From a virus (taxonomy: Duplodnaviria; Heunggongvirae; Uroviricota; Caudoviricetes): a stretch of 41,648 bases of DNA. The DNA is taken from IMG/VR virus record IMGVR_UViG_2609459832_000005, one strand, 5' to 3'. Below, piece by piece: positions 1 to 41,648 of this stretch (the first letter of the stretch is position 1; every line of letters begins with the position of its first letter). A program made the position numbers and the translations under genes. The notes below the pieces were generated by a model. The model saw only the letters and a list, made by a program, of their open reading frames with translations, was not told where the DNA came from and searched no databases.

Positions 1-101
1 TGCTGTTACGTTTTGCTTTCAGCTGGATTGTGCAGTTCTGTACCGGTTTTCCTGTGCCGTCTTTCAGTACACCTGAAATCTTTACTGCCATATTCACCCC
101 A

Positions 102-129
102 CAAAAAAGCCCGCCTGAACCGGCGGGCT
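102..129 (-). terminator. Rho-independent terminator downstream of lom
   Basis: 8-bp stem AGCCCGCC/GGCGGGCT (108-115 / 122-129) with 6-nt loop; on the minus strand it is followed by a U-run (plus-strand A-run 103-108), directly 3' of the lom stop. Confidence 0.6.
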
Positions 130-155
130 GTCATAACACTGTGTTACCTGGCTAA

Positions 156-755: not shown

Positions 756-825
756 AATTACCTCTCGCTTTTCTGCAATAAAAAAGGCGTCATTCCTGAC
801 GCCCTTTATTGGGGTTATAAATATT

Positions 826-3800: not shown

Positions 3801-4323
3801 GCGGCGGCAGGTTACCCACCACCACCGAGGCCAGATACTGCGAGGTGGTTTTGCCCTTAATGGTGATGTCTTTTTCCGTCACCCAGCCACCATTACGCTG
3901 GATCTGAACCAGCAGGCGGACTTCCGACGGATTCCTGTCCCCCTTTGAGGTGGTTTCCACCAGTGCCTGCACGCCGAAGGTAAAACGCAGTCGGTCAATG
4001 TTTGCCGACGTGATGGTCCGGGTGATCGGCGTGTCGTATTTCACTTCCGTACCCAGCACCGTCTCGGAGCCGGAGGATTCAAATCCCTCCGGCGGTGTCT
4101 GCTCCTGCTCACCGGCCCGGAACACCACCGTGACGCCGGAGATATTGGTATTCCCCTCACTGTCCAGCACTGGCGTACTGTTCAGCAGCACGCTTTTTAA
4201 TCCATCCACCGGACCTTCAACCGGCCCTTCGCTGATGGCATCGATCACACTCAGCAACTGCGTGGACTTCAGGTTGTCCTTCGCTTCGCGCGGGGTATGC
4301 CCCTTACTGCTGCCTTTACCCAT
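826..4323 (-). CDS. J: Tail tip / host-specificity protein J (central tail fibre)
   Basis: 1165-aa ORF in the lambda J position after I; size and recalled N-terminal/central similarity to lambda J; C-terminal ~150 aa appear divergent from lambda J. Confidence 0.9.
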
Positions 4324-4383
4324 TCGTCATGCTCCATAAACGACAAAACCGCCCGGAGGCGGTTTCACATAAAACATTTTGCA

Positions 4384-5031
4384 TCAGCGCCCAATCACCA
4401 CAACCTGACCACCGTCCCCTTCGTCTGCCGTGCTGATCTCCTGAGAAACCACCCGCGACCCCACACGCATTTCACCGTACAGAACAGGCAAAACATTGCC
4501 CTGAGCAACCATGTTATCCAGTGAGGAAAAATAGGTGTTCTGTTTGCCGTTATCTGTACTGGCTGCCGTGGACGTCCTGGCTTTCGGTGCCAGCATCTGC
4601 GCCACACCGCCCAGGATCATACTGGCCCCTGCCGCATACATGCCCGATACAGCCGCGGCACCCAGCCAGCCCACAGGGTTCCACCATGCCACCGCAATCA
4701 ACGCCGCCCCCAGCACCACCTGAAATACACCGCCACTTTTAGCTCCCGCCAGACGCGGCACGATATGGATCACGGCACCATTTGCCAGCGGCTCATTAAG
4801 ACGGGCAGATAATTCGGTTTCACCTGCATCACGCCCGGCAATGCGCACCTGATACCAGCCGTCATTCAGTTTCTGACGAAACGCCGGGAGCTGTGTGGCC
4901 AGCGCCCGGATGGCTTCGGCCCCCGTTTTCACACGAAGGTCGATGCGGCGGCCAAATCGTTGCAAATCCCCGTAAAGGCAGATGCGTGCCATGCCCGGTG
5001 ACGCCAGAGGGAGTGTGTGCGTCGCTGCCAT
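4384..5031 (-). CDS. I: Tail assembly protein I
   Basis: 215-aa ORF; N-terminus MAATHTLPLASPGMARICLYGDLQRFGRRIDLRV and C-terminus ..VSQEISTADEGDGGQVVVIGR match my recollection of lambda gpI; position between K and J. Confidence 0.85.
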   Translation of the reverse strand: MAATHTLPLASPGMARICLYGDLQRFGRRIDLRVKTGAEAIRALATQLPAFRQKLNDGWYQVRIAGRDAGETELSARLNEPLANGAVIHIVPRLAGAKSGGVFQVVLGAALIAVAWWNPVGWLGAAAVSGMYAAGASMILGGVAQMLAPKARTSTAASTDNGKQNTYFSSLDNMVAQGNVLPVLYGEMRVGSRVVSQEISTADEGDGGQVVVIGR

Positions 5032-5672
5032 TTGTCGGTATACCTCTCTCGTTTGCTCAGTTGTTCAGGAATATGGTGCAGCAGCTCGCCGTCACCACAG
5101 TAAATGGCGGCATGATTCGGCACCGATGAACCAAAACAGCACAGCAGCACATCGCCCGGCTGCGCCGCTGACAACGGCACCTGATACAGCCCTGTGGCCT
5201 CCAGATTATCCAGATAGAGATTCTGACCGTGACGCCACCAGTCATCCCCGCGATGAAAATCCGGCATCTCAATCCCCGCCAGATGATAAGCATCCCGGAA
5301 CAGCGTGTAACAGTCCGTCACCCCGTGCTCAAAGCGCCGCCCGGTAAGATGCGGCACACTGCGGAATTTATGAATCTCACCCCGGCAGACCAGCCACCAA
5401 GGCAAATCGCTCTGCACCTGCAGCCGCCTGTCAGCCTCACTCAGCCAGGGCAGACCACCGGGGTGGCTGTGGACCAGCGCCACAATCTCACCCTGCATCT
5501 CTGACCGCAGCCAGTCCTCCGGCGACATCCGGAAATACGCCTCCGGCTCACCGGAGATATTCACGCTGGGAAAATATCTTTCCCCCTCCGGCGTTCTCAC
5601 CACGAAGCCGCACGATTCCGCTGGCGCACATCGCCGGGCGTGCGCCAGAATCGCTGATTCTGTCTGTGTCAT
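4929..5672 (-). CDS. K: Tail assembly protein K (MPN/JAB plus NlpC/P60-like domains)
   Basis: ORF track gives 272 aa from an upstream start; likely true start MTQTESAILAHARRCAP (247 aa) just after the L stop; HSHP motif (JAB-type) and C..H residues as in lambda gpK. Confidence 0.8.
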   Translation of the reverse strand: MTQTESAILAHARRCAPAESCGFVVRTPEGERYFPSVNISGEPEAYFRMSPEDWLRSEMQGEIVALVHSHPGGLPWLSEADRRLQVQSDLPWWLVCRGEIHKFRSVPHLTGRRFEHGVTDCYTLFRDAYHLAGIEMPDFHRGDDWWRHGQNLYLDNLEATGLYQVPLSAAQPGDVLLCCFGSSVPNHAAIYCGDGELLHHIPEQLSKRERYTDKWQRRTHSLWRHRAWHASAFTGICNDLAAASTFV

Positions 5673-5676
5673 GGGA

Positions 5677-6375
5677 TTACTGCGAAAGTTTGTTAATGGA
5701 AAGGAAGCCGCCAAAGTTGCCGACGTTATTGCGAAACTTACAGCCACTCAGGCATTTGCTGCATTTATCCTTCGTGATATCGGACGTCGGCTGGTCATAT
5801 TCATCAGCGACAGCCGGACCGCTATAACCGCACTCATCACCGCGATAGGTCCAGGTGCAGGTGTTGGCCAGCATGATGCGCCCCGGAAAAACAGCACCAT
5901 CCGTTTCCGTCGGTGTGGAGAGCACAAAGGAGGCACTGACCGCACTCAGTTCGCTACACTGCTCGATGCGCCAGCGGCTGATCACCTCCTGCTCCGGATC
6001 GGCGTCGCTGTTTCCGTTGACGAAGTTCACCGCATCCAGAAAACGGGCGTAAACCTTACGCCTGACCACCGTTCCGCCGACCAGACTCTGCAGGTCTTCC
6101 GCCATCCCGGTGACCATGCCGTGCAGGTTAGAGACCGTCAGTGTCGGACGGGCAGCACTGCCCTTACCGTTCAGTTCAAATCCCGTCCCCTGAATGGGGT
6201 ATGCCTGATACTGCCGCCCCTGCCAGGTGACCGGCTCACCTTTTTCGTTCTGCTCATTACAGAAAAAATAACGTTCACCACCGACCTCTGTCAGATCGAT
6301 TTCCCAGAGCACCACCTGGGCTGACTGAGTAAGGCGTGTCGTCTCATGATGTGTTTCCTGTGGAATATCCTGCAT
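5677..6375 (-). CDS. L: Minor tail protein L
   Basis: 232-aa ORF (same length as lambda gpL), cysteine-rich C-terminus, located between M and K. Confidence 0.8.
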   Translation of the reverse strand: MQDIPQETHHETTRLTQSAQVVLWEIDLTEVGGERYFFCNEQNEKGEPVTWQGRQYQAYPIQGTGFELNGKGSAARPTLTVSNLHGMVTGMAEDLQSLVGGTVVRRKVYARFLDAVNFVNGNSDADPEQEVISRWRIEQCSELSAVSASFVLSTPTETDGAVFPGRIMLANTCTWTYRGDECGYSGPAVADEYDQPTSDITKDKCSKCLSGCKFRNNVGNFGGFLSINKLSQ

Positions 6376-6384
6376 CAGGGCCTC

Positions 6385-6714
6385 CTATGCCACGACCTGT
6401 TCAAAATCTGCCGTTATGGTTACCCACAGCGCCCCCACGCTTGCCGACCATTTACGACAAACCACCCTAATCGGCTTCCAGTCATAAGGTGGCGTCCACT
6501 GAAATGCGCGGACGCCACCGTGCCGTTCCAGAAAGGCTTTCAAAGATGGGTGTTCACATTTACGAACACGTATCGTCACGCTGTAAGTCGACAACTGGTT
6601 ATTCAGTCCCACCGCACGACGCTGTTCATAACCATCGCCCAGCTTCACTGTCACCACTTTCGGCTCTGATACCACATTCATATCCGGGCGCACTTTCCAG
6701 TGAAACGTCTCCAT
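6385..6714 (-). CDS. M: Minor tail protein M
   Basis: 109-aa ORF (same length as lambda gpM) immediately after the tape measure gene. Confidence 0.8.
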   Translation of the reverse strand: METFHWKVRPDMNVVSEPKVVTVKLGDGYEQRRAVGLNNQLSTYSVTIRVRKCEHPSLKAFLERHGGVRAFQWTPPYDWKPIRVVCRKWSASVGALWVTITADFEQVVA

Positions 6715-9700
6715 TACCGATATGCTCCACTTAACCGACCACCATCACGGGCCTGCTGTTGCATAAAGTCCGCTGCCGCTTTTTTCCCGAGGTCATAAAC
6801 CACCTTCAGGGCAGCCGGACCTATCTGCCCGTTCGTGCCATCGTTATTGATCTCGATGTTGTACTGCGGGGCAAACATCGCCATACCTGAACCACCAATA
6901 TCCGCCACAACCCCCAGCTTACCGTCAGCACCACGACGCAGAGGCAGAATGGCTTCAGGCCCAGCTTCCCCCATCACACCTGCACCTTTTGCAAAAGCAA
7001 AAAACGTCGGACGGTTAACCACCGTGCCACTGTAGCGACTCAAATCAGCAGACTGATAAACACCACCATCAGCATTGGGCGTCACACTGGCAGTTGCTGC
7101 ACTCCCCCAGCCAAACGCCGAACCAATCCCCTTAACTGCCTGCATCATGGACATCTGAGCCATGATTTTTGCCAGATCAGAAAGGAGCGAGGCGGTAAAA
7201 GATTTGAAGTTCAGTTTTCCGGTGGTACAGAATGTTGCCAGTGCATTACCTGCACTATTAAATGCCGCTGTAAGCATCTGCTCCGCAGTGCCTGCCGCAT
7301 TATCCGCATCTGCCGTGAAATTCTGAAACGCCCGCATGGCACCGTTTTTCCAGTTACCCTGAGCAATTTCAAGCTGTTGCCAGTAACGGCGATTCTCATT
7401 CAGTTGCCTGTTCAGGCTCTCCGTCAGCGCCTGCTCGGCCTTTCTGTAGTCATCCGTGTTATATGTCCCTTTCTGCTCACTATCCCGCCTCAACTGCTCC
7501 AGCTGTTGCTGGTATTTCTGGCGAAGGCTCAGTTGTACCTGATATCGCTGCCGCTGCTGATCACCCATACCCACCGTGGCGATATCCAGGTCATGTTGCT
7601 GACGCTGAGCGCGCTCTTCTTCAGCCAGTTGACTGGTCAGCTGAATTGTTTTTTTCTTCAGATCGTTGAGTGCCGTCTGTTTCTGAAGCTCCTGCTGTTT
7701 TACATCCAGCAGCGTCAGTGCCTGAATCAGTTCATCTTTACGGGCCAGCACACTCTTTTCATCTGCCGTCAGCTTTTTCCCGTCCAGGTCGCTGATGCGC
7801 TGCTGCAGAGCCAGAAGCTGTTTATGCGCTTCTGTCATCCTGTCAGTGGCAATGCCTGCTGACTGTCTGGCAGCAGCAATCTGCCCTTCCACCTGTGCCT
7901 GTTGCTGGCTGTACTGCAGCAATAACCGGGTGGCCTCATCATTACGGGTTTCGCGTGTTTTTTTCTTACCGGATGCCAGGGCTTTCTCGTAACGTTCATT
8001 TTCACGTTGTATCGCCGCATCCCTGACAGCCTGATCGGCGTACTGCATGGCATTAATACGCGCAATTTCACGCTGATGTCGTGCTGCTTCCGTTTCATTC
8101 ATCCGGTTCAGTGCAGCATTTTCAGCATTACGGCGTTTCTGTTGCTCCTGATAATTCCGCTCTGCCTGCTCTTTTGCATCCTGCAAATCCTTCTGGCGTT
8201 TTTTCTCCTGAAGCTCGTTAAGACGCTGCTGATCGTATTCAACCTGAGAAGATGATGCCGTCCAGGGGAGTCTTTTCGCCCGCGATACTTTCTCCTGCAA
8301 AGTGGCAATCTGCGCATCCAGCGAATCTTCACGACCAATATTCATGGCCGCATCCCAGAACTGCTTCCACCAGTCAGACAAGGTTTGCAGCGTACTACCC
8401 AGCGCATTGAGGTTATTATCAATATCCGCAGTACGCCGACCGGTTTCCTCTGCCAGTGCAGACATGGCTATCCGTGCCGCATCACTGGAGCGCCCCTGCT
8501 CTCCAAGGACGCGTATCTGCTCAAGCTGAGTGGCAGTAAGAAAATGCAGCTCATTGTCCAGAGCCTTCGCGGCATTTACAGGATCATCCTTCAGCCGCTT
8601 AAACTGATTTATGGTATCGCTGACCGACTGGCCAACCGATCGCTCCATCTGTGCGGCAGCTCTCGCCACCATACCGATATCGTTTCCACGAAATGCACCA
8701 CTCCCCACCACCTGAGCCAGCGCACCGGCTGCAACATGTTGCGTGATACCATTCCCGGAAATAGCACGACTGAGCGTCCACAGCTGCCCGGCAGTGACTC
8801 CGGCATAATGCCCCGTCAGCGACAGCTGGCGGTTAAATTCTTCCCCCTCCTTCTGACCGTCATACCAGGCTTTACCCAGACCATAGACGGCCGCGGTAAT
8901 ACCGCCAATAACCCCGCCCAGCATCATGCCTTTCGGTGACATCAGTGTGTCTATCCATCCGGCACGGTTAGCCAGCGTTATCCCGGATCCCCTCAGCGCC
9001 CCTAAATTGCCGCGGGCCAGTTCACCTATCAGAACGCCTATCTCCTGGCGGGCCGCTGCACTTTTCAGACCCAGCGAATGCGTGGCTTTTCCTGCCCGCT
9101 CCATTTTGCGGATATACACTTCTGCAGCACTGCTTACCCCCAGCTGGGCAGCCCTGGCACGAAGCAACTCAGAAGAAGAAAGATTCTGGCGGGTTGCCTG
9201 CTCTTTAAGCTGACGGATAAACGCCACTTTCTGTCGGGTAGCCTCTGCCTCAGCCTGCGTAAGAACACGGGTTTTCGCCGTAACCTCAGAAATCAGCGCC
9301 AGATAATCCTGCTGACCAATCCCGCCACTGTTTCTGGCCTGTCGGATCTGCTGCTGAATACGCTGTAACTCCTGCAACCCCGCACTGGCCTGTTTCACAC
9401 TGTCAATCTGACGATAAAACGCGGCAGCCGCTTTATCCTGAGCCTCCGCCAGAGCCATGGCCTGTGCCTGTTCCTCGCGCATTTTCTGGCTCAGTGCCTC
9501 CATACGCTGGCGGGTTTGCTCCACCTCGCGGGCCATGCGTTCATGAGCCTGTGCGCTCTTCTCCACCGTCTGCGCATGGACGGATGCGGCTGTTGCAGCC
9601 GAAGAAGCCGCCTGCATTGTCTGCCGGGCGGCCTGAGTCTGACGCTCCATAAAACGCTGCATACGGGCAGAAGACCGTTCTGCATCGCTGGCTGCACCAT

Positions 9701-28929: not shown

Positions 28930-29758
28930 GACGATGCCCTCCGCTGATATTCAGGAGACGGTGAATATGAAAATTAGCCTTATCCGCCAGACGAATACGT
29001 TCAGCTTGCAAGTTAAGAAGGGTTTCTACCAGAACCTGATGTGCCTGCGGATCCGAAAGAGTTACCTTGCGCAGAGCACGTAGTGCAGTTGTTACATAAC
29101 TGAGTTTATGTAAGTCTTCATCATTCAGACGAGTGAGGGCTGGGACAGTAGCCATGATGGCAGCCTCCTTGATCGGTGAAATACTTCCACCACCGGAAAC
29201 GCCAATTTCGCTGGTGGTGAACTGAACGGGGTTGGCGTAACCGGTGATCAAGGAAACCGGCGCATCTTTCGATGCCCCCGCCCAGCCCACCATAACTTTG
29301 ATGTGAGCAAATGCGGACGATAAAAAAGACGCTGGCGCGTCATATATCGCCTTGATCAATTCCAGGACGCCAATCCCGGCACCCGCTTTATAAGGTGCCT
29401 GAACAGTGTAACGTCCCGGAATGGCAGAATCAATGTGCTGGTGGTCCTTCACACTCAACAAAATCACGCCTGAATTTCCACAAAGGACTAAAGCACTCAT
29501 GCGGGTAGTCTTTGCGAAGATAGATAACGCGCTGTGTTTCTGGCTCCCAACGAATAACATGAACATAAAGTCCTCTTCCGTCACGAAACCAGCGGTTAAG
29601 TTCCTGCACAACTCGCCCCCCACAGTCAGGTAAAGTTCTCTGTGGTTACTTACAGCCAGGTGATTTGGTAATCTGCATTCATGCCGTAACAACAGGTGTT
29701 CAGCGACGCTGACCACCAGCTGTTGCGACAAACGGTTATTTGCCGTTAAACTGTTCAT
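28922..29758 (-). CDS. Hypothetical protein (replication-region gene of unknown function)
   Basis: 278-aa ORF between the CII-like gene and the O-like gene; no Walker motif; function not recognisable. Confidence 0.45.
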   Translation of the reverse strand: MNSLTANNRLSQQLVVSVAEHLLLRHECRLPNHLAVSNHRELYLTVGGELCRNLTAGFVTEEDFMFMLFVGSQKHSALSIFAKTTRMSALVLCGNSGVILLSVKDHQHIDSAIPGRYTVQAPYKAGAGIGVLELIKAIYDAPASFLSSAFAHIKVMVGWAGASKDAPVSLITGYANPVQFTTSEIGVSGGGSISPIKEAAIMATVPALTRLNDEDLHKLSYVTTALRALRKVTLSDPQAHQVLVETLLNLQAERIRLADKANFHIHRLLNISGGHRHA

Positions 29759-30318
29759 GCGTTAGTTTCTCCACAGACACAAAACGCCACGACGCCCGGA
29801 GCTGCACACTCGCGGGCGTCACTCTTTTCTGGAGCGCAAAAGATTTTGTAGACCAGTGCTGCATGCTCCTGGAGCTTCGAAATTGACAGATACAACTCAT
29901 CATTAATTGCTGTCTGCTCGTGTGGCTCCACTACCCCATCTTCGATTGCCGAACGAATCTGCTTTGAGTAACTCCCGATCTGTTCGATGACTTCCAGCAG
30001 GCGCTGGTTTATATCGGCGTTCTCTACTTCCTCAATTTCAGGAAGCGATACAAACACCCCACCAGCAGACTGTGCGACAGCATCCGCAATGTAGTGAGTG
30101 CCAGCCGCGCGCTGTAAAATCATTGCCCATCCCAGCGGGAAAATCTGATCGCCATCTGCACGAAGGCGGTTGAATAAAGCGTTCTCTGTTACATCCAGCC
30201 ACTCAGCAGCTTCAGCGTAACCCCCCGGCAACGCCGCGATAGTTTTTCTGACAGCTTTCACGTACCACTCAGGCTGTTTTTCTACTTTCCAGTGATGCTT
30301 ACCCACGGTTAGCCTCAT
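29755..30318 (-). CDS. CII-like regulatory protein (CP76/YdaT-like position)
   Basis: 187-aa ORF directly downstream of cro; probable HTH around LDVTENALFNRLRADGDQ; assignment by position and weak recollection. Confidence 0.4.
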   Translation of the reverse strand: MRLTVGKHHWKVEKQPEWYVKAVRKTIAALPGGYAEAAEWLDVTENALFNRLRADGDQIFPLGWAMILQRAAGTHYIADAVAQSAGGVFVSLPEIEEVENADINQRLLEVIEQIGSYSKQIRSAIEDGVVEPHEQTAINDELYLSISKLQEHAALVYKIFCAPEKSDARECAAPGVVAFCVCGETNA

Positions 30319-30349
30319 CGTTCTGTGGTTAAAAATTGAAGGTGTTCTG

Positions 30350-30550
30350 TTAATCTTTCGGATAGATATCCGGTCTTAAGTCAGATTTCGTAATTGCACC
30401 TGACGTGCATTGCTCAAGTTTTTTAGCCAGCACAAAACTGGCTTTTTTATAACCATTGAAAACCAGCCGTAAGTAGCCTGGTGTTGAGCCAACTTTTCCG
30501 GCCAACTCGCCCTGCTGTTCTTTGGTTAAAGAGTCCCAATACGCTTTCAT
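30350..30550 (-). CDS. cro: Cro-like repressor (HTH)
   Basis: Likely start MKAYWDSLTKEQQGELAGKVGSTPGYLRLVFNG.. (66 aa) preceded by GGAGG; divergent from cI across an operator-containing intergenic region; the 167-aa track ORF is an upstream extension. Confidence 0.65.
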   Translation of the reverse strand: MKAYWDSLTKEQQGELAGKVGSTPGYLRLVFNGYKKASFVLAKKLEQCTSGAITKSDLRPDIYPKD

Positions 30551-30640
30551 ACAATATGTACCTCCGGTATACATATTACATGATTGAGATGAACCTTCAA
30601 GATACTTGTACCTTATCGGTACAAAGGTTTTAATTTCTTT
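30551..30640. promoter_or_regulatory. Immunity-region operator/promoter interval (PR / PRM with inverted-repeat operators)
   Basis: Perfect inverted repeat TTGTACC-ttatc-GGTACAA (30606-30624); second TGTACC half-site at 30557-30562; candidate PR -35 TTGAAG and -10 TAATAT on the minus strand upstream of cro. Confidence 0.55.
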
Positions 30641-31315
30641 ATGAAAACAGTCCATGACATCCGGCGGTCTAACGCCAGAAAACTGAGAGATGGTGTTGGC
30701 GGGAATTCTTCCTTTGCCACCATGATTGATCGCGAGCCAACCCAGACCAGCAGGTTTATGGGAGATGGTGCTACTAAAAATATCGGTGACAGCATGGCAC
30801 GGCACATCGAAAAATGTTTCGACCTGCCTGTCGGATGGCTTGATCAAGAACACCAGACAACAAACATCACAAAAAAACCTGATGTTTCAATTACTAACAA
30901 ACAAATAACGTTAGTCCCTGTCATATCATGGGTACAGGCCGGAGCATGGAAAGAAGTTGGCTATTCTGAGGTTGATTTGAGCACAGCAGAAACTTATCCC
31001 TGCCCTGTACCCTGTGGCGAAATGACTTATATCTTGCGGGTGATTGGTGATTCAATGATTGATGAGTACCGCCCGGGAGACATGATTTTTGTAGATCCTG
31101 AAGTCCCTGCCTGCCACGGTGACGACGTTATTGCATTGATGCACGATACAGGCGAAACCACCTTTAAGCGGTTGATAGAAGATGGAACACAGCGTTACCT
31201 CAAAGCATTAAACCCAAACTGGCCTGAACCTTACATTAAGATCAACGGTAATTGCTCTATAATTGGCACAGTAATTTTCTCAGGAAAACCAAGAAGATAC
31301 AAAATAAAGGCCTAA
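30641..31315 (+). CDS. cI: CI-type prophage repressor (N-terminal HTH plus C-terminal S24 LexA-like autopeptidase)
   Basis: 224 aa; C-terminal domain with Ser nucleophile motif VIGDSM and Lys in TFKRL; N-terminal HTH; divergent from cro. Confidence 0.85.
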   Translation: MKTVHDIRRSNARKLRDGVGGNSSFATMIDREPTQTSRFMGDGATKNIGDSMARHIEKCFDLPVGWLDQEHQTTNITKKPDVSITNKQITLVPVISWVQAGAWKEVGYSEVDLSTAETYPCPVPCGEMTYILRVIGDSMIDEYRPGDMIFVDPEVPACHGDDVIALMHDTGETTFKRLIEDGTQRYLKALNPNWPEPYIKINGNCSIIGTVIFSGKPRRYKIKA

Positions 31316-31326
31316 TCAATATTTAT

Positions 31327-31349
31327 AACCTGCTTCGGCAGGTTTTTTT
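31327..31349 (+). terminator. Rho-independent terminator after cI
   Basis: Stem AACCTGC / GCAGGTT with TTCG tetraloop followed by T7. Confidence 0.65.
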
Positions 31350-31353
31350 ATAC

Positions 31354-31386
31354 TTGACAATGTACCCTTGAGATACATAATGTATC
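31354..31386 (+). promoter_or_regulatory. pL-like early-left promoter with overlapping operator palindrome
   Basis: -35 TTGACA (31354-31359), 16-bp spacer, -10 CATAAT (31376-31381); TGTACC operator half-site in the spacer and perfect palindrome GATACAT-A-ATGTATC (31372-31386) over the -10. Confidence 0.55.
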
Positions 31387-31807
31387 TAAAAGAAACATGT
31401 CACAGGCAAGATTAAACAAAATTTGGTTGTAACACGGCGTATGGCACATGCGTCGTTAGCGGTCTGGGGACGTTAAAGGGGACAATCCACTCCTTGCTCG
31501 GGCAAACAAACCAGGTAGCCGGAATGTGCAAGTCAATGATGATGCTGATAAGACGCCTAACCAGCGTGGCGATCCGGTTTGACGCCTGGGAAGAGACTAG
31601 GGTGCAACGATGAGGGCATTTATGGAGCCGCGACAAAGTGTGGTGCCGTAACTGGCTAAGTGCTCTCAGCGTTGTGGTGAATACGCAGGCTGATGCGCGA
31701 AAGACATTGCAGCTAATGCGGAAAAGAGCTGTTCGGCGGGGCAATTAAACGCCCGAGAGAGTCTGAAATAACCGCAAGCCGGAGATCAGCACCGGTCACC
31801 ACAACAG

Positions 31808-31864
31808 CCACTGCTTTGGCGGTACCAGTTTGTACACTTGCTTCCGGCTGGTACCGCTCTTTTT
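31808..31864 (+). ncRNA. DicF-like small RNA candidate ending at an intrinsic terminator
   Basis: CTTTGGCGGTACCAGTTTGTAC resembles the Qin-prophage DicF core (GUUUGGCGGUAUCAGUUUUAC) as I recall it; 10-bp stem GCGGTACCAG / CTGGTACCGC (31819-31857) followed by TCTTTTT. Confidence 0.4.
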
Positions 31865-32001
31865 ACAAAACAGAGAAGAGCATCACCGGACGACGGGCTC
31901 ATAACCCAATCCATCCGGGCGGCTGCCACCGCAGGTGTTCTTCTCTGTTTTGTGGAGAAACCAACCGACCTTGCAGGGTCGATATGATGAGGAGCAGCAA
32001 A

Positions 32002-32364
32002 ATGGCTAGCGAACGCAGTACTGATGTGCAGGCATTTATCGGGGAGCTGGACGGCGGCGTATTTGAAACCAAAATCGGCGCAGTTCTCAGTGAAGTCGCT
32101 TCAGGTGTGATGAACACGAAAACCAAAGGTAAGGTCTCACTCAACCTGGAAATCGAACCATTTGATGAGAACCGTGTGAAAATCAAACACAAACTCTCAT
32201 ATGTTCGCCCGACTAACCGCGGGAAAATTTCCGAAGAAGACACCACCGAAACGCCGATGTATGTCAATCGCGGTGGTCGCCTGACTATTCTGCAGGAAGA
32301 CCAGGGACAATTACTGACTCTTGCCGGTGAACCTGACGGAAAACTCCGCGCAGCAGGTCATTAA
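32002..32364 (+). CDS. YfdP-like protein (120 aa)
   Basis: Likely start MASERSTDV.. preceded by GAGGAG; same length and position as yfdP in CPS-53-type prophages; the 182-aa track ORF upstream extension overlaps the sRNA terminator. Confidence 0.5.
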   Translation: MASERSTDVQAFIGELDGGVFETKIGAVLSEVASGVMNTKTKGKVSLNLEIEPFDENRVKIKHKLSYVRPTNRGKISEEDTTETPMYVNRGGRLTILQEDQGQLLTLAGEPDGKLRAAGH

Positions 32365-32429
32365 TACCGTTCTTAATTAACCGATTATTTATCTCATCAC
32401 TGAATATCTTTATATAGTGAGGACTTATT

Positions 32430-33254
32430 ATGTCTCAGAACTTAGACGCAACCGCAATTAATCAAATCCATGCCCTTATTTCTGCTCAGGGTGTTAATGA
32501 AATTATCAGTAAGATTGGTGCCGATGCTGTGGCATTGCCTGAGAATTTCCGCATTCATGATCTGGAAAAATTTAATTTAAATCGCTTCCGTTTCCGTGGT
32601 GCGCTTTCCACTGCCAGCATCGATGACTTTACCCGTTATTCTAAAGATCTTGCAGATGAAGGCACCCGCTGCTTTATCGATGCCGATAATATGCGAGCAG
32701 TCAGTGTGCTTAACCTGGGTACTATTGATGAACCAGGTCACGCAGATAACACCGCCACTCTCAAACTGAAAAAGACAGCACCGTTCTCTGCCCTGTTGTC
32801 TGTTAACGGCGAGCGTAACTCCCAGAAGTCACTGGCAGAATGGATTGAAGACTGGGCCGACTACCTTGTGGGCTTTGATGCTAATGGTGACGCCATTCAG
32901 GCAACCAAAGCGGCTGCGGCGATCCGTAAAATCACAATTGAAGCGAACCAGACCGCTGATTTTGAAGACAATGACTTCAGCGGCAAACGCTCCCTGATGG
33001 AGTCTGTCGAAGCGAAGACCAAAGACATTATGCCAGTGGCATTTGAATTTAAATGCGTTCCGTTTGAAGGCCTGAAAGAACGTCCGTTTAAATTACGCCT
33101 CAGCATTATCACTGGCGATCGTCCTGTACTGGTTCTGCGCATTATTCAGCTGGAAGCGGTGCAGGAAGAAATGGCTAACGAATTTCGTGATCTGCTTGTT
33201 GAGAAATTTAAAGACAGCAAAGTAGAAACCTTTATTGGTACTTTCACCGCCTGA
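32430..33254 (+). CDS. YfdQ-like protein (DUF2303 family, 274 aa)
   Basis: 274-aa ORF in a yfdP-yfdQ-yfdR-yfdS gene order; length equals E. coli YfdQ; assignment from synteny and memory. Confidence 0.55.
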
Positions 33255-33381
33255 TTTCATTACTGCAAATGCCCCTGCGGGGGCATTTATGGAAACATAA
33301 TTTACTCAATAATCGCCGGATGGTGAGGGCTTCCTTTTACCAGAATTCAGCGCGGTGCAGCGCATATACGTGGAGAACAAA

Positions 33382-33918
33382 ATGTCATTTATTAAAACTT
33401 TTTCCGGGAAGCATTTTTATTATGACAAGATAAATAAAGACAACATCGTTATTAACGATATCGCGGTTTCCCTTTCAAATATCTGTCGCTTTGCAGGACA
33501 TCTTTCACACTTCTACAGCGTCGCCCAACATGCGGTGCTTTGCAGCCAACTGGTACCGCAGGAATTTGCTTTTGAAGCGTTAATGCATGATGCAACAGAA
33601 GCGTATTGCCAGGATATTCCCGCTCCACTGAAACGCCTTCTTCCTGACTATAAACGGATGGAAGAAAAAATAGACGCCGTAATCCGTGAGAAATACGGGT
33701 TACCCCCGGTTATGAGCACGCCCGTGAAATATGCCGATCTCATCATGCTGGCAACTGAACGCCGCGATCTCGGGCTTGATGATGGCTCTTTCTGGCCTGT
33801 ACTGGAAGGTATCCCGGCAACAGATATGTTCAAAGTTATTCCACTGGCACCGGGCCATGCCTATGGGATGTTTATGGAACGTTTTAACGAGTTATCGGAG
33901 TTACGCAAATGCGCATGA
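33382..33918 (+). CDS. HD-domain 5'-deoxynucleotidase (YfdR-like)
   Basis: Likely start MSFIKTFSGKHFYYD.. (178 aa); HD-domain His/Asp residues (HFYSVAQHAV, LMHDATEAY). Confidence 0.7.
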   Translation: MSFIKTFSGKHFYYDKINKDNIVINDIAVSLSNICRFAGHLSHFYSVAQHAVLCSQLVPQEFAFEALMHDATEAYCQDIPAPLKRLLPDYKRMEEKIDAVIREKYGLPPVMSTPVKYADLIMLATERRDLGLDDGSFWPVLEGIPATDMFKVIPLAPGHAYGMFMERFNELSELRKCA

Positions 33919-34271
33919 ATGTTTTCGAAATGGAAGGGTTTCTTCGCGGGAAATGTGTACCGCGAGATCTGAAAGTGAACGAAACAAATGCTGAGTACCT
34001 GGTACGTAAATTCGACGCGCTTGAAGCTAAATGTGCGGCACTGGAAAACAAAATAATACCAGTGTCAGCTGAACTGCCACCTGCAAATGAAAGTGTTCTG
34101 TTATTTGATGCTAACGGAGAAGGCTGGCTAATTGGCTGGCGTTCTCTCTGGTACACCTGGGGACAAAAAGAAACCGGAGAATGGCAGTGGACATTTCAGG
34201 TCGGGGACCTTGAAAACGTCAATATCACTCACTGGGCAGTAATGCCGAAAGCACCGGAGAATAAGAAATGA
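33909..34271 (+). CDS. YfdS-like protein (120 aa)
   Basis: 120-aa ORF overlapping the 3' end of the HD-domain gene; Trp-rich C-terminal region; synteny. Confidence 0.45.
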   Translation: MRMNVFEMEGFLRGKCVPRDLKVNETNAEYLVRKFDALEAKCAALENKIIPVSAELPPANESVLLFDANGEGWLIGWRSLWYTWGQKETGEWQWTFQVGDLENVNITHWAVMPKAPENKK

Positions 34272-34483
34272 GCGTGATAAAAACTCATACAGGAATTGTT
34301 ATTACCCGAAACGGTCCGCAGGTAAAAAAACTGCACCAGACAAAGCGGATGTGGGTCGTCGGAAAAAACGAGTTTTACCACAAAGAAACCGGACGCCGCC
34401 ACTTTGCAGAAAATACGCGCCGCCGACTGCTCCTGGACAGCATCAGGCCAATTAAACAGGTAGCAACCAGAGAACAAAATTAA
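34268..34483 (+). CDS. Hypothetical small basic protein
   Basis: 71-aa ORF with ATGA overlap to the upstream gene; no motif recognised. Confidence 0.35.
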   Translation: MSVIKTHTGIVITRNGPQVKKLHQTKRMWVVGKNEFYHKETGRRHFAENTRRRLLLDSIRPIKQVATREQN

Positions 34484-34530
34484 TTATCAGGACTGAAATT
34501 TGATATTACTGCCCGTGTGCAGCGGGCTAA

Positions 34531-34749
34531 GTGGAGAAACATATGCTGAACCTCGATTGTGTTCCTATCTCAACTTATTGCAAAGAAACTGGCGAAACTC
34601 CTGAAGCAATAAACAAACGTGTACAGCGCGGTGTTTGGCGTGAAGGTGTTCAGGTTTTAAAGGTTGAAGGCGTTAAGGAGAGGTGGATTGATCTTAGTGA
34701 GGTTGCAAAATGGGCCAGACAAAACTGCTCAAACTACCGCGCGGCGTAA
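34531..34749 (+). CDS. Excisionase-like small DNA-binding protein
   Basis: 72-aa ORF immediately upstream of and overlapping the integrase gene; probable winged-helix region (INKRVQRGVWREGVQVLKVEG). Confidence 0.5.
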   Translation: MEKHMLNLDCVPISTYCKETGETPEAINKRVQRGVWREGVQVLKVEGVKERWIDLSEVAKWARQNCSNYRAA

Positions 34750-35879
34750 CAATCAGAAAACACCGTCAGGGAGAAACGATCAATATAACTTTCACCTACA
34801 AAGGAGTTAAATGTCGTGAGCCACTTTCCAATCTGGAAGTAACACCAAAGAACATTAAATACGCCGAGCGTACACTCGGCGAAATTCATAATAAGATCGA
34901 AAGGGGAACATTCATTTATGCGGAATATTTTCCCCGTTCTGCTCGTTTGAAAATTTTTGGTAATGCTGCTGCAGGCAAAACGGTAAAAATGTACCTGGAC
35001 GAATACCTTGAAATCTGCGAAACGAGAAAACTTTCACCATCTACGATTGGTGGTTATAAAAAATGCCGTAGTGCGTTAGCCTCACTCCACATTTGCCCTG
35101 CAAGTGAATTAACACCAGCAATCCTGAAAGCGTGGATTCAAAGCCAGAAAACGACCTTAAAAACAATTCGCAACCAGTTATCTTTCCTGCGGTCAGCACT
35201 TGATGAAGCCGTAACCGATGGGGTACTTCAAATTAACCCCGTATCGTTGGTAACTGCTTCGCGCTACCAAAGTGATAAGTCAGAAGCAGAAAGCAGCTAC
35301 ATGGTTGATCCGCTATCACCAGCAGAAGTTGATGCATTACTAGCAGCAGCCGGAAACAAACAATGGGAGAATCTGTTCCGGTTCGCTATACATACAGGCC
35401 TGCGTAGTTCTGAATTATGTGCCCTTCGATGGCGTGATATCGACTTTGTTGGAAAAACTGCCCATGTCCAGAGCGCAAGTGTTGTCGGTGTTATCAAAGG
35501 AACAAAGACAAAAGCCGGTACTCGTAAAGTCGAACTGACAGAAGATGCAATGTTGGCGCTGATAAATCAGAAGCCATTTACATTCATGAAGGATGCTACA
35601 GTCTTTGAAGATCCAAAGACCAATAAGCCTTGGGCAAGTGCTGATGCAATTAGAAAAAAAGCATGGGTGCCAACATTGCGGAAAGCAGGTATTCGTTACA
35701 GAAACCCATATCAAACCAGACATACATTCGCCACCAGCCATATCAGCCGGGGAGCAAACCTGTTTTGGCTTGCGGTTCAAATGGGTCATAAAGGACCAGA
35801 GATGTTATTTAGACATTATGGCTCATACCTCAAAGAATATGATGGAAATACATCTTTAAATAGAAAAAATAGATATTAG
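34710..35879 (+). CDS. Lambda-type tyrosine integrase
   Basis: 389 aa; N-terminal arm-binding-type region (LPRGVTIRKHRQGETINITFTYKGVKCRE), C-terminal catalytic region with R..H..R..Y pattern (RHTFATSHI.. LFRHYGSYL); oriented toward the attachment-site copy at 37357. Confidence 0.85.
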   Translation: MGQTKLLKLPRGVTIRKHRQGETINITFTYKGVKCREPLSNLEVTPKNIKYAERTLGEIHNKIERGTFIYAEYFPRSARLKIFGNAAAGKTVKMYLDEYLEICETRKLSPSTIGGYKKCRSALASLHICPASELTPAILKAWIQSQKTTLKTIRNQLSFLRSALDEAVTDGVLQINPVSLVTASRYQSDKSEAESSYMVDPLSPAEVDALLAAAGNKQWENLFRFAIHTGLRSSELCALRWRDIDFVGKTAHVQSASVVGVIKGTKTKAGTRKVELTEDAMLALINQKPFTFMKDATVFEDPKTNKPWASADAIRKKAWVPTLRKAGIRYRNPYQTRHTFATSHISRGANLFWLAVQMGHKGPEMLFRHYGSYLKEYDGNTSLNRKNRY

Positions 35880-35885
35880 TTTAGA

Positions 35886-35908
35886 TAAAAATGGCCTTTA
35901 CAGGCCAT
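35886..35908 (-). terminator. Terminator hairpin between convergent int and the DarT-like operon
   Basis: Stem ATGGCCT / AGGCCAT with TTAC loop (35891-35908); on the minus strand followed by UUUUA. Confidence 0.45.
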
Positions 35909-35911
35909 TAT

Positions 35912-36601
35912 TCATATCAATGTATGTTGAATAGAATAATTTTCAACACCATAATGAGATGCTAATTTTGATAAAAAACCATCCTTTGAAGATAAAACAT
36001 CATCTAACATATTTCGTCTTACTAAAGAGACAAAAAGTGCAGCTGCTCTGGCTTGGCAATTAATAGATTTCGCTGGATTAAATTCAATATCAGTAAACCC
36101 ATCAAAATTTAATAGATGGAGTGCTAGATTTTTGTTTTGATTGAGCGCACTCAAATATAACCAATCATAAAAAGCAGTCCTGGGGACAATGGGCCATATT
36201 GTATTATAAAATTTGAAGTTAACTAATCCCCCAGATTCCTTTAATCTCATATCTTTTTTTGCTTCTATCGAGCTTTTATCTAAGATATCGACATATGGTC
36301 CTCCCATTTCAAATACTTTACTTGCTTGAAATGCAGATTCAACTGTAAACTCTTTCCCAAGTCTTTTCGTCTTTATTCTTAGATTAAATGCACTAAGTGC
36401 TACCCCCAGCGCATCTTCGGATTTACTAGAAATTTCCAACAAAGAGTTCAATCCCTGCTCATTCGCTGCTGTATGTAACGCCCTGATCGATTTTTGCTTT
36501 TGCGTTTTAGACATACCAGGAGCCCAAGGAAAATCCACATCCTTCGTGATCGATAGTAAGTTCCCTGCGTTTGTAGGGACGAAAACAGGTCTAACAGCCA
36601 T
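35912..36601 (-). CDS. Uncharacterised 229-aa partner of the DarT-like gene (candidate antitoxin/immunity protein)
   Basis: Start codon 3 nt after the DarT-like stop with AGGA SD (translational coupling); AT-rich; no macrodomain or NADAR signature recognised. Confidence 0.6.
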   Translation of the reverse strand: MAVRPVFVPTNAGNLLSITKDVDFPWAPGMSKTQKQKSIRALHTAANEQGLNSLLEISSKSEDALGVALSAFNLRIKTKRLGKEFTVESAFQASKVFEMGGPYVDILDKSSIEAKKDMRLKESGGLVNFKFYNTIWPIVPRTAFYDWLYLSALNQNKNLALHLLNFDGFTDIEFNPAKSINCQARAAALFVSLVRRNMLDDVLSSKDGFLSKLASHYGVENYSIQHTLI

Positions 36602-36604
36602 AAC

Positions 36605-37228
36605 TTATCCTAAATAATAATGCCTCTGAGAATAAAGTGTTCTAGCATTAAGATTATCATAATATCTCTGTATTGTCTGTGGATATAATCTCTTGAAATG
36701 TTCAGCAGATTCTTTGTTAGGGTGAAAAGTGCTTATAATATATGAGGGAGGAATTTTTTCAAATACCAGTATTTCAGCTTGAACATCCGTCGTATACTCA
36801 CTTGGAAGGTTTACATCTCTCTGAATCCCAAAAACATTCTCTGAAAACAAAGCACTAAATGCCTCAGCTCCTTTCATCAAATCAAGATTTATAAAACGAA
36901 CGTTATTCGAAGCTGCGTTGGTAGGATAAAAAGCGCAATCCTTAGCCCAAAGAACAGATGGATTGATTTCTAATATAACCCAGTCCCCAGGCTTTAAACA
37001 TCTATATTTATAAAACATTTTTGCATTAGGGTAACTTACGGACAAACAAATCGCATCTGGATGACCATCAATCCTTTCTTCATCATTACAATTATATTCA
37101 TTATTTTCATTATCAAGTTCTGAACGAGACATAAGGCCATTATCTAAAATGGAAGTTAGATTATCGCTATGTGTAAAATGAAACAAGCTACGAATATTAC
37201 GTTGCTGAATTATTTCCTGTATTGTCAT
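36605..37228 (-). CDS. DarT-like ADP-ribosyltransferase (DUF4433 family) candidate toxin
   Basis: 207 aa; N-terminal signature FHFTHSDNLTSILDNGL (DarT hallmark [YF]H.TH.DNL..IL..G.L) and C-terminal QAEILVF resembling the catalytic-Glu motif (AEFLV) of DarT, both as I recall them. Confidence 0.6.
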   Translation of the reverse strand: MTIQEIIQQRNIRSLFHFTHSDNLTSILDNGLMSRSELDNENNEYNCNDEERIDGHPDAICLSVSYPNAKMFYKYRCLKPGDWVILEINPSVLWAKDCAFYPTNAASNNVRFINLDLMKGAEAFSALFSENVFGIQRDVNLPSEYTTDVQAEILVFEKIPPSYIISTFHPNKESAEHFKRLYPQTIQRYYDNLNARTLYSQRHYYLG

Positions 37229-37253
37229 AAAACATCCATTTACTTCATGTAAA

Positions 37254-37300
37254 TATATGTTTTATATATAACATATACCTCAAGTATCCACAAAGGATAC
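37254..37300. promoter_or_regulatory. Two inverted repeats upstream of the DarT-like operon (candidate operators/promoter)
   Basis: TATATGTT-ttatatat-AACATATA (37254-37277) and GTATCC-acaaa-GGATAC (37284-37300), 26-72 bp upstream of the DarT-like start codon. Confidence 0.35.
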
Positions 37301-37356
37301 GCATGTGATCTACTTCAAATAAAAGCTATAAATTACAGTTATTTACCATTAATAGA

Positions 37357-37386
37357 ACGCGGGTTCAACTCCCGCCAGCTCCACCA
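37357..37386 (+). other. Attachment-site core: copy of the 3'-terminal 30 nt of ssrA (tmRNA), not a complete gene
   Basis: ACGCGGGTTCAACTCCCGCCAGCTCCACCA equals the tmRNA acceptor/T-arm 3' end; upstream sequence does not continue as tmRNA. Confidence 0.65.
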
Positions 37387-37433: not shown

Positions 37434-37465
37434 GCCCGCACGGCGCAAGCCCTGCGGGCTTTTTT
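37434..37465 (+). terminator. Rho-independent terminator (native ssrA terminator)
   Basis: Stem GCCCGCA / TGCGGGC with 12-nt loop followed by T6. Confidence 0.55.
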
Positions 37466-37591: not shown

Positions 37592-38833
37592 ATGGCAAGA
37601 CAAACCAAACCTCTATCCGTTAAAGAAATAGAATCAGCCAAACCCAAGGAGGCGGACTACGTTCTCTATGATGGCGATGGCCTTGAGCTACTCATTAAAT
37701 CCAGCGGGAGTAAAATCTGGCAGTTTCGCTACATTCGCCCTGTCACCAAGAAACGAGCAAAGAAGAGCATAGGCTCCTACCCGTCAGTTACCCTTGCCGA
37801 TGCCAGAAACTACCGTGCAGAGTCCCGCTCACTACTGGCTAAACAGATCGATCCGCAGGAACATCAGCAAGAACAATTGCGCAGTTCGCTGGAAGCCAAA
37901 ACCAACACTTTCCAACTCGTAGCTGAACGTTGGTGGAATGTGAAGAAAGCCAGTGTGACAGAGGACTATGCGGAAGATATCTGGCGCTCTCTTGAAAGAG
38001 ACGTCTTTCCTGCGATTGGCGACGTTAGCGTTACAGATATTAAAGCTCATACACTGGTTCAGGCCGTACAACCGGTTCAGGCCAGAGGAGCACTGGAAAC
38101 TGTTCGTCGCCTGTGCCAACGTATTAATGAGGTCATGATCTATGCCCAGAACACAGGGCTGATTGATGCTGTTCCCAGCGTTAATATCGGTAAAGCCTTC
38201 GAGAAGCCTCAGAAAAAGAACATGCCCAGCATTCGACCGGATCAGCTACCTCAGTTAATGCAGACGATGCGAACAGCCAGCATTAGCCTTTCCACACGCT
38301 GCCTGTTCATGTGGCAACTTCTTACTATTACCCGCCCTGCCGAAGCGGCTGAAGCTCTCTGGGAAGAGGTAGACATAGAAGCGCGAGAGTGGAAGATTCC
38401 TGCAGCACGCATGAAAATGAACCGCGACCATACTGTTCCATTGTCAGATGAAGCAATTGCGATACTAGAGATGATGAAGCCGTTAAGTGGAAATCGAGAA
38501 TTTATCTTTCCCAGCCGCATCAAGCCAAACCAGCCGATGAACAGTCAGACCGTAAACGCATCGCTAAAACGCGCAGGTTTTGGTGGGGTGCTCGTTTCAC
38601 ACGGCCTGCGATCTATCGCCAGTACAGCCCTTAATGAGCAGGGATTTCCACCTGATGTTATTGAGGCTGCACTTGCTCATGTGGATAAGAATGAGGTTCG
38701 TCGTGCGTATAACCGTAGTGATTATCTTGAGCAGCGACGGCCTATGATGCAGTGGTGGGCTGATTTTGTGATGGCTGCAGATCACGGTAGTATGATTGAA
38801 GGAGGGATAAAGGCAATGCGGTTAGTTGGATGA
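37592..38833 (+). CDS. intA: P4-family tyrosine integrase (IntA-like, ssrA-associated)
   Basis: 413 aa; N-terminal KPLSVKEIESAKPKEADYVLYDGDGLELLIKSSGSKIWQFRY typical of P4-type integrases; C-terminal R..H..R..Y catalytic pattern; immediately downstream of the ssrA 3' end copy as in E. coli CP4-57. Confidence 0.9.
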   Translation: MARQTKPLSVKEIESAKPKEADYVLYDGDGLELLIKSSGSKIWQFRYIRPVTKKRAKKSIGSYPSVTLADARNYRAESRSLLAKQIDPQEHQQEQLRSSLEAKTNTFQLVAERWWNVKKASVTEDYAEDIWRSLERDVFPAIGDVSVTDIKAHTLVQAVQPVQARGALETVRRLCQRINEVMIYAQNTGLIDAVPSVNIGKAFEKPQKKNMPSIRPDQLPQLMQTMRTASISLSTRCLFMWQLLTITRPAEAAEALWEEVDIEAREWKIPAARMKMNRDHTVPLSDEAIAILEMMKPLSGNREFIFPSRIKPNQPMNSQTVNASLKRAGFGGVLVSHGLRSIASTALNEQGFPPDVIEAALAHVDKNEVRRAYNRSDYLEQRRPMMQWWADFVMAADHGSMIEGGIKAMRLVG

Positions 38834-38971: not shown

Positions 38972-41259
38972 CTATTTTAAATCAGCCTTTGCGGCTCGAA
39001 TATCTGCGTTTTTTGCTGAGTATTCCCATTCGTCAGCGATTCTAAATAGCATTGCAGAAGTACGGACGCAGTGGGGCATTGAATTTGCCCATTCTCGGTA
39101 CTGCTCAGCTAATATCCTTTCTTGGTTTCCACCTTCGTAACGCATACGAGCAAATACCCCCCTTTTATTGTACCTACCAATTTGTATACCTTGCTCTAAC
39201 TCATCAGAAGATAATATTTCAATGATGTGCCGAATTGCTTCATGTGGCCAGGAATTATCTACTGAGCTATTAGGGGCATGTGCCAGAATTTTTCCTATTA
39301 CATGATCAGTGATTTCTTGGCGATGATGCAATTTTGCTAAATGGCGTACATTCTCACACCAATCTTCAAGTTTATCTTGATCAATTTCATTGTCTATCTG
39401 CCCTGGTAGTATTCGTAATTTTTCAAGTAATCTGTATATAGAAGTAGCTCTTTTAACTTCCAACTCCGATGGTTCTGTTTGTTCATCTTCGTCACTACGA
39501 TATACAATACATATTGCTTCTATAAAAACCTCTGGCTTTTTCATCATTAGACGATGCAGGATAAGTGGCTCATCGCTATCCGGAAAACAAGGCAAGTAGG
39601 TCATTTCTTTAAATGCCAAATCTGTTTCAGAAACATCGTTACGTTGTTTGAGTTCATCAAAAACTTTTTTTACATAGTACGATAGCATTGTATCAAATTG
39701 GATATCCTGGCTATTTATTTCTTTAACGACTATATCTAGAAGATATAAAAGTGTTGTAGATGGAATCTCAGAAAGGCGTTGATTTGCTGATATAATAGCA
39801 GCAAGACCCCGGCCCCTTTCTATATATTTATCCATAAGAACAAATAAATCCGAAGTTTTACCCATCATTGCAATGGGTTGTTTTTGCAACCAATATTTTT
39901 CGTTGATGTTATCTTCAAACCCTTCAATAATGCTCCATATCTCTTGTGAGTCTCTTAACGATGCTAAGATTTTCCCAGCCCTATCAGGGGTAATTTTAAA
40001 CTGTTTAAAATACACTTTTATTTTATTAAGCCATTCAGCACCAAAGCATTCAACACCATATTGCATTAACAACCCACAAACTTCATCAATATTTTTTTTG
40101 TTGTTAATAAGCATTACAAACAAATCATTTAATTTTTCTTCATCCAACGAGAGTGCTGATATATGCCTTGCTGCAATAAAAACATTATTAACTTGTTGAA
40201 AAAGGTCTTTCACCCCAGACAAACCTAAAGTAAAGTATATTTCCCTAAGTTTTTCACTTCGCATTTCTTCGACAGAAGAAAAAATTCCGCCAGCATTTTC
40301 AATTGACTCTTCAATATCAGAATCCCAATCATTGAAAATCCATAAACTGGCTCTAACCATGTCAATTGGTTTATAATTATCAAGTATTTTCGCTATTTTT
40401 TCCATAGACTCAAATTTAAATGCCCAGTTCGCATCTGAATATTTTTTATGGCGAGAATACTCATGACGCAAAGCCTCCCATACGATGAACTGATCCTCTT
40501 CAGTTTGTTGAGAAAGGCAAAGTTCAAGATGAGAAAGTGTTTCATCTATTGCATTCTCAGGGAATGAGCTTAAATGAGAGATTAGGATTTCCCATCTTGT
40601 TAGGAGTATACCTGCAAGTTTAATTGCTTCTTGGATAATAAAGATTTGCCCCTCCCAAACAACGCCCCACGTTAGTTTTTCTACATCTTTATCCGACTCT
40701 CTGAACTTCATTTTTTGGTTTTGATCAGAGGTATCATGGGAGCGAGGAAGGAGATTTTGTAACAAACTCCACCCAATACTAGGAACAATAGTGATAATTT
40801 TTTTTATAATTGCATTTCTAACTTTTACTGGTGCCCATGTATTAGGAGACCATGCCAGAAAAATGGTTCTTAAACTATTAAGAGGGCGATCTGAGTAAGT
40901 TCCTCCGGGATCTATTACAGCGAGTTTTGCAAGACAGATTGCAGCGCGTAATAGATATGTTTGTTCCCAAGCCAAGGCTTCCAATGCCCATTTTAATCCA
41001 TGATAATGACTTCGAGGAGTTAACAGCCCTTTATCTTCATTGAATATTGGAGCAATCATTTCCCCATTGCCCTTAAGCAATTGCTCAAGGGCATCAAGGA
41101 AAGGGCCAGGGGCAGCTTCTGCCAGCAGCGGAAGTTGATCTCGCAAACTAACAAATAGTCGATGGTCGTTAGCAAGTCCCGGAATACTCTGAACTATTTT
41201 GTTAACAAAATCTTGGGGTGTCATACCAGTAACCCGGAATTCGGCCTGTTCATGTAATA
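38972..41259 (-). CDS. Large AT-rich orphan protein (>=750 aa, helical-repeat-like), 5' end abutting IS3
   Basis: 767-aa track ORF whose first ~5 codons are read from the IS3 terminal repeat; first native ATG at 41222-41224 (MTPQDFVNKIV..) lies 35 bp from the IS3 end; no P-loop or nuclease motif recognised. Confidence 0.6.
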
Positions 41260-41648
41260 TGATCTTACCCAGCAATAGTGGACACGCGGCTAAGTGAGTA
41301 AACTCTCAGTCAGAGGTGACTCACATGACAAAAACAGTATCAACCAGTAAAAAACCCCGTAAACAGCATTCGCCTGAATTTCGCAGTGAAGCCCTGAAGC
41401 TTGCTGAACGCATCGGTGTTACTGCCGCAGCCCGTGAACTCAGCCTGTATGAATCACAGCTCTACAACTGGCGCAGTAAACAGCAAAATCAGCAGACGTC
41501 TTCTGAACGTGAACTGGAGATGTCTACCGAGATTGCACGTCTCAAACGCCAGCTGGCAGAACGGGATGAAGAGCTGGCTATCCTCCAAAAGGCCGCGACA
41601 TACTTCGCGAAGCGCCTGAAATGAAGTATGTCTTTATTGAAAAACATC
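41260..41648 (+). mobile_element. IS3 (left end, partial; continues beyond the window)
   Basis: Terminal sequence TGATCTTACCCAGCAATAGTGGACACGCGG.. followed by the IS3 orfA matches my recollection of IS3; orfB start (ATGAAGTATGTC..) overlaps the orfA stop at 41633. Confidence 0.8.
41316..41624 (+). CDS. IS3 transposase OrfA (HTH subunit)
   Basis: 102-aa ORF (track) with HTH and leucine-zipper-like C-terminus (EIARLKRQLAERDEELAILQKA), typical IS3-family OrfA. Confidence 0.85.
   Translation: MTHMTKTVSTSKKPRKQHSPEFRSEALKLAERIGVTAAARELSLYESQLYNWRSKQQNQQTSSERELEMSTEIARLKRQLAERDEELAILQKAATYFAKRLK

Follow-up and report, generated by a model that had tools for sequence, protein, structure and literature searches.

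Operon anatomy

Two genes on the minus strand, darT1 (36605–37228), which encodes a 207-amino acid toxin, and directly behind it the gene of a 229-amino acid NADAR antitoxin, or DarG1 (35912–36601), form a bicistronic operon at positions 35912–37228 of the window, by which we mean the whole stretch of 41,648 nucleotides that was analysed. The toxin gene comes first and the antitoxin gene follows on the same strand, as is characteristic of DarTG1. The junction between them on the coding strand is TTAGGATAAGTTATG, in which the TAA stop codon of darT1 is separated by three nucleotides from the ATG of the NADAR gene, and an AGGA sequence just 5′ of this ATG overlaps the end of darT1. The original prediction had described both open reading frames and their translational coupling through an AGGA Shine-Dalgarno sequence in the same terms, and both were recovered at these coordinates.

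The gene pair has a GC content of 34.7%, compared to 43.2% for the adjoining integrase gene and 49.8% for the window. Directly 3′ of the NADAR stop codon, where the NADAR and integrase genes converge, and common to both genes, lies a terminator-like hairpin (35890–35909, minus strand) with an 8-bp stem, a 4-nt loop and a T-rich tail (TTTATCT), which coincides with an inverted repeat (35887–35897/35902–35912). At the other end of the operon, inverted repeats overlap the darT1 start codon and extend upstream of it (37227–37277, minus strand). The AT-rich composition, the operon's own terminator, the upstream palindromes and the position of the operon between a prophage integrase gene (34710–35879) and an attachment site (37361–37386) had all been predicted, and all four were confirmed. 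The promoter was not located: a sigma-70 scan gave no above-threshold hit on the minus strand 5′ of darT1, and the number of sites in this region equals that expected from shuffled sequence.

The toxin is DarT1

The 207-residue protein contains the motifs FHFTHSDNLTSILDNGL and QAEILVF, the glutamate of the latter being residue 152. A profile search matched residues 16–182 to the Pfam family PF14487 (DarT, DUF4433) with E = 6.8e-24 and a score of 85.2 bits (cut-off 22.5), which bears out the assignment of this protein as a DarT-type ADP-ribosyltransferase in the original prediction. The PADLOC DarT model was matched with E = 2.1e-13. The protein also matches the Protein Data Bank entries 8BAQ, 8BAR and 8BAS of Escherichia coli C7 DarT1 (E = 8e-142), from which it differs solely by the engineered E152A substitution of the crystallized protein, and a comparison of translated genes shows 100% identity to the DarT1 of E. 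coli C7 (WP_032219799.1). Residues F18, D49, R52, D54, S63, M71, F72, N104 and E152, which Schuller et al. mutated (PMC11543638), are all present. We thus annotate the darT1 product as a guanine-specific ssDNA ADP-ribosyltransferase with Glu152 as its catalytic residue.

The partner is a NADAR antitoxin

The 229-residue protein matches Pfam PF22397, 'DarT1-associated NADAR antitoxin', over profile positions 1–210 of 212 with E = 1.4e-89. This is the sole Pfam family found on the protein at E ≤ 1, a threshold at which no macrodomain match was returned either. Residues 1–212 align to the structure of the Geobacter lovleyi NADAR (8BAT, E = 3.5e-71), and the full protein is 100% identical to the NADAR of E. 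coli C7 (WP_032219797.1). The positions mutated in the NADAR by Schuller et al. (PMC11543638), namely E88, K95, K115, K116, R119, K121, D171, E173 and K178, all carry the expected residues. We annotate it as a hydrolase that takes ADP-ribose off guanine.

The original prediction, in which neither a macrodomain nor a NADAR signature had been recognized in the partner, was mistaken with regard to NADAR, and the possibly new class of antidote that it had proposed is a known one. It had itself named a clear NADAR match as the outcome that would make the pair a conventional DarTG system, and such a match is what the profile search returned. As the partner is a known NADAR, the pair is a conventional DarTG1 and the finding is an ordinary one.

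A prophage integrated at ssrA

The operon is part of a lambdoid prophage, whose tail tip protein J, tape measure, portal, terminase, lysis and LexA-family repressor genes were identified from the RefSeq annotation of near-identical regions. The tyrosine integrase gene (34710–35879, plus strand) is convergent with the operon, and its product carries the Pfam domains Arm-DNA-bind_2 (5e-23) and Phage_integrase (1.1e-15); the equivalent gene is labelled 'site-specific integrase' in RefSeq. The start of this gene is overlapped by an excisionase gene (34543–34749, plus strand), an annotation transferred through a 99.9% alignment from the RefSeq 'excisionase' of C7 (positions 4664–4870 of the C7 locus).

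The right boundary of the prophage is an att core (37361–37386, plus strand) that duplicates the 3′ end of ssrA, the tmRNA gene. This 26-nt core, GGGTTCAACTCCCGCCAGCTCCACCA, is found once in the window, with 0 occurrences expected by chance. ARAGORN detected neither a tmRNA nor a tRNA in the window, which contains no more of ssrA than its final ~26 nt. Since there is no full tmRNA gene, the att site was assigned by combining (i) an exact-match search, (ii) a partial Rfam tmRNA match, which ends at 37386, and (iii) the homology breakpoint, as the similarity to the C7 prophage breaks off at precisely this position. Phage records of Salmonella, Klebsiella and Cronobacter have the same 32–44 nt at their ends. 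Beyond the att core, the ssrA terminator (37447–37461) is followed by a second integrase gene, which is intact and of the CP4-57 type (37592–38833). In strain LT2-3, the ssrA terminator and the CP4-57-type integrase gene are followed by ypjA and the gab region, which we take to be the gene order expected downstream of ssrA on the K-12 map.

Several other elements of the window deserve mention. Next to the CP4-57-type integrase gene, in an integrase-adjacent island position, there is a large, uncharacterised open reading frame of 767 amino acids (38972–41275, minus strand), for which no Pfam match at E ≤ 0.01 and no PADLOC match at E ≤ 0.1 was found, and whose LT2-3 counterpart is named 'hypothetical protein'. 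Inside the prophage, Rfam matches above the gathering score place a C4 antisense RNA (29210–29297, minus strand, 82.3 bits) beside the Hfq-binding RNA isrK (29322–29398, minus strand, 64.2 bits), a pairing that presumably resembles the antirepressor immunity region of the P1/P7 type. The prophage early region also contains a YfdR-type gene (33355–33918, plus strand), annotated in RefSeq as a 5′-deoxynucleotidase, which is an ordinary accessory gene; its Pfam matches are weak and fall below the curated cut-offs (YfbR-like, 3e-05, 24.2 vs 25.9 bits; HD_3, 0.0064, 16.9 vs 22.5 bits).

Occurrence of the operon and its cargo slot

A megablast search at a minimum coverage of 80% found the operon in 29 of 5426 complete E. 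coli genomes, C7 included. In C7, LT2-3 and others, RefSeq names the two genes 'DarT1-associated NADAR antitoxin family protein' and 'DarT ssDNA thymidine ADP-ribosyltransferase family protein'. At the DNA level, positions 29880–37386 of the window are 99.9% identical to positions 1–7507 of the extracted C7 locus. The phage record collection contained the att core only and no copy of the operon.

The integrase is far more common than the operon, being carried by about 396 E. coli genomes, but only 28 records contain it at an identity of at least 99%, a number near that of the genomes with DarTG1. We inspected the region between the integrase gene and the att site in four related prophages whose integrases are 94–97% identical to that of the window. 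An AAA ATPase and a Dam-type DNA adenine methylase are encoded there in JJ1887 and Ec-042-T5-MAC (5726–8438 in each locus), three genes including one for a STAS-like protein in IHE3034 (locus positions 5665–7535), and a ParA-family protein together with two hypothetical proteins in FWSEC0007 (locus positions 5927–7849). The int-att slot of this family of ssrA-integrating prophages is an exchangeable cargo site.

Inverted repeats over the darT1 start codon

The repeats at the 5′ end of the operon comprise an inverted repeat with 17-nt arms and 88% complementarity (37227–37243/37249–37265) and a 12-nt palindrome upstream of darT1 (37254–37277). The strongest of them has 15 matched pairs, a value that only 1 of 1000 shuffles attained when the dinucleotide composition of this stretch (74% A+T) was kept, and the repeat is thus non-random. 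When folded as RNA, the segment 37285–37215 of the minus strand yields a predicted hairpin of −16 kcal/mol (z = −3.24), with 3 of 200 shuffled sequences folding equally well. This hairpin pairs the GGA upstream of the start, that is the weak Shine-Dalgarno sequence, and the darT1 AUG itself, which lies inside the stem. The available copies of the operon show little sequence diversity, all being ~99.9% identical.

Because the toxin gene is first and translation of the antitoxin gene is coupled to it, reduced initiation at darT1 imposed by such a structure would be a plausible way of keeping expression low. Toxin synthesis may be held down relative to that of the coupled antitoxin by the hairpin or palindrome, which spans the ribosome-binding site and start codon of darT1. 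The same repeat could alternatively serve as an operator. To our knowledge, the question of how DarTG1 senses infection is not settled. A more ambitious proposal is that 37227–37277, as an RNA hairpin or an operator, is an undescribed cis-regulatory element that sets the toxin to antitoxin ratio or couples the release of DarT1 to infection by a phage or to induction of the prophage; we consider this rather unlikely.

Relation to characterised systems

The closest relative of the window operon is the DarTG1 of E. coli C7, which has the same gene order, the same 3-nt junction and the same neighbouring integrase, and encodes both proteins with 100% identity. The C7 locus differs only in the host chromosome beyond the att core at 37386, where it has a disrupted integrase gene instead of the ssrA terminator and intact CP4-57-type integrase gene of the window. 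At its far end, the C7 prophage carries the effector genes NleG and EspJ and abuts torT, not ssrA. A full ssrA was searched for at this end and was not found, and C7 thus cannot show attL. These flanks suggest a prophage-mediated rearrangement in C7.

The DarT1–NADAR pair of G. lovleyi belongs to the same family and has the same architecture but is a diverged orthologue; the C7 NADAR is 48–57% identical to the NADARs of selected species (PMC11543638). The DarTG2 systems (DarT2–DarG of Thermus aquaticus, Mycobacterium tuberculosis and EPEC) resemble DarTG1 in combining a DarT-fold ssDNA ADP-ribosyltransferase with an antitoxin that enzymatically reverses the modification, and in acting in phage defence. 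DarTG2, however, targets thymidine and has an antitoxin composed of a macrodomain and a DarT-binding domain, whereas the DarTG1 found in the window targets guanine N2 and has an antitoxin with a single NADAR domain (PMC11543638). Like the window antitoxin, the phage T4 protein AdfN (gp30.3) has a NADAR fold and removes the guanine-ADP-ribose produced by DarT1 (PMC11825919), but AdfN is not a cognate antitoxin: it is encoded by lytic phages that lack the toxin and is used by them against DarTG1.

Mechanism of toxicity and phage defence

For precisely these protein sequences, the literature already covers the two-gene system together with its chemistry, its structures and its part in defence against phage. 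DarT1 of E. coli C7 kills E. coli unless it is counteracted by its own NADAR (Schuller et al. 2023, Mol Cell 83:2303, PMC11543638). In ssDNA it ADP-ribosylates guanosine bases, which the crystal shows to be modified through the N2 amino group of guanine, and the resulting guanine-ADP-ribose is hydrolysed by NADAR but not by the DarG macrodomain (PMC11543638). The C7 NADAR was studied further in PMC11125620. E. coli C7 is also the representative that was used to show phage defence by DarTG1, in which DarT activity on phage DNA prevents the production of mature phage and the infected cell does not recover (PMC11543638). Under its native promoter, darTG1 blocks RB69 about 10^5-fold, and T-even phages counter DarTG1 with the orphan NADAR AdfN and with AdfA (Johannesman et al., PMC11825919 / PMC11257639).

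Toxicity, rescue by NADAR, guanine N2 modification and phage protection would be expected of the window operon on the strength of these publications, which concern proteins of identical sequence. In the mechanism documented for those proteins, DarT1 transfers ADP-ribose from NAD+ onto guanine N2 in ssDNA, which blocks DNA replication with a bacteriostatic or lethal outcome. In uninfected cells, the co-transcribed NADAR hydrolase strips the ADP-ribose from guanine and so neutralises the toxin. When RB69 or another sensitive phage infects, DarT1 activity gains the upper hand and the phage DNA becomes ADP-ribosylated; infectious progeny are not released, in the manner of an abortive infection system. 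The operon is probably expressed from the lysogen and would then protect it against superinfection.

Identity of the system and alternative readings

On the predicted protein sequences, every feature that defines DarTG1 and can be read from sequence is present, and the macrodomain antitoxin that defines DarTG2 is not. No sequence evidence against a DarTG1 identity was found, and neither protein differs from its C7 counterpart at a catalytic residue. We therefore conclude, with a probability of about 97%, that the operon at 35912–37228 is a DarTG1 (DarT1–NADAR) toxin–antitoxin and anti-phage system, the same allele as that of the E. coli C7 model system, which a lambdoid prophage carries as accessory cargo in the interval from its integrase gene to the ssrA att site. 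In this broader respect the original prediction, a toxin–antitoxin or anti-phage module held as int-att prophage cargo, was right.

Two other identities were considered. A DarT-type toxin paired with a new antidote that is neither a macrodomain nor a NADAR protein would be in keeping with PADLOC-DB v2.0 and NCBIfam, neither of which returns a family for the 229-residue protein, but this is refuted by the full-length PF22397 match, by the 212-residue alignment to the solved NADAR 8BAT, and by the complete identity, catalytic residues included, to the biochemically characterised C7 NADAR (PMC11543638); we give this reading practically no credence. The product name 'ssDNA thymidine ADP-ribosyltransferase' in RefSeq and Pfam and a weak match of the toxin to the DarT2–DarG fusion chain 7OMU (E = 7e-4) could instead be taken to indicate a conventional, thymidine-specific system of the DarTG2 type. 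The lack of a macrodomain match on the partner at E ≤ 1 argues against this, and the toxin scores only 29.2 bits with the NCBIfam DarT equivalog NF048013, thereby missing the cut-off of 150. Such an identity, whose likelihood is likewise negligible, is refuted by the published biochemistry of the identical protein, which is guanine-specific and whose product is not reversed by DarG (PMC11543638). The thymidine in the product name is misleading for the guanine-specific DarT1 (PMC11543638).

With the DarTG1 identity retained, the function of the module may be weighed differently, in that it could mainly be an addiction system which stabilises the prophage by penalising loss of the element, phage defence being a by-product. 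Its location inside a prophage, beside int/xis and the att site, fits such a role, as does the documented toxicity with rescue by the antitoxin (PMC11543638). Addiction would require an antitoxin less stable than the toxin, however, whereas the antitoxin here is an enzyme that reverses the damage and we have seen no evidence of its lower stability. Furthermore, the C7 system has been shown directly to exclude phage strongly (PMC11825919 / PMC11257639), and related prophages hold unrelated cargo in the same int-att slot, as expected of an exchangeable accessory locus. We regard a mainly stabilising function as improbable, and note that roles in addiction and in phage defence are not mutually exclusive.

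Implications

The variable cargo slot and the non-random hairpin over the darT1 start codon are only small additions to a known system. DarTG1 may be taken for an orphan DarT with a mystery partner when examined by eye or with PADLOC-DB v2.0 or NCBIfam, a matter that Pfam PF22397 resolves at once. In other strains, the int-att slot of these prophages holds other, less well annotated modules. Should the regulatory reading of 37227–37277 be true, the exchangeable slot would make the operon a tractable natural lysogen model.
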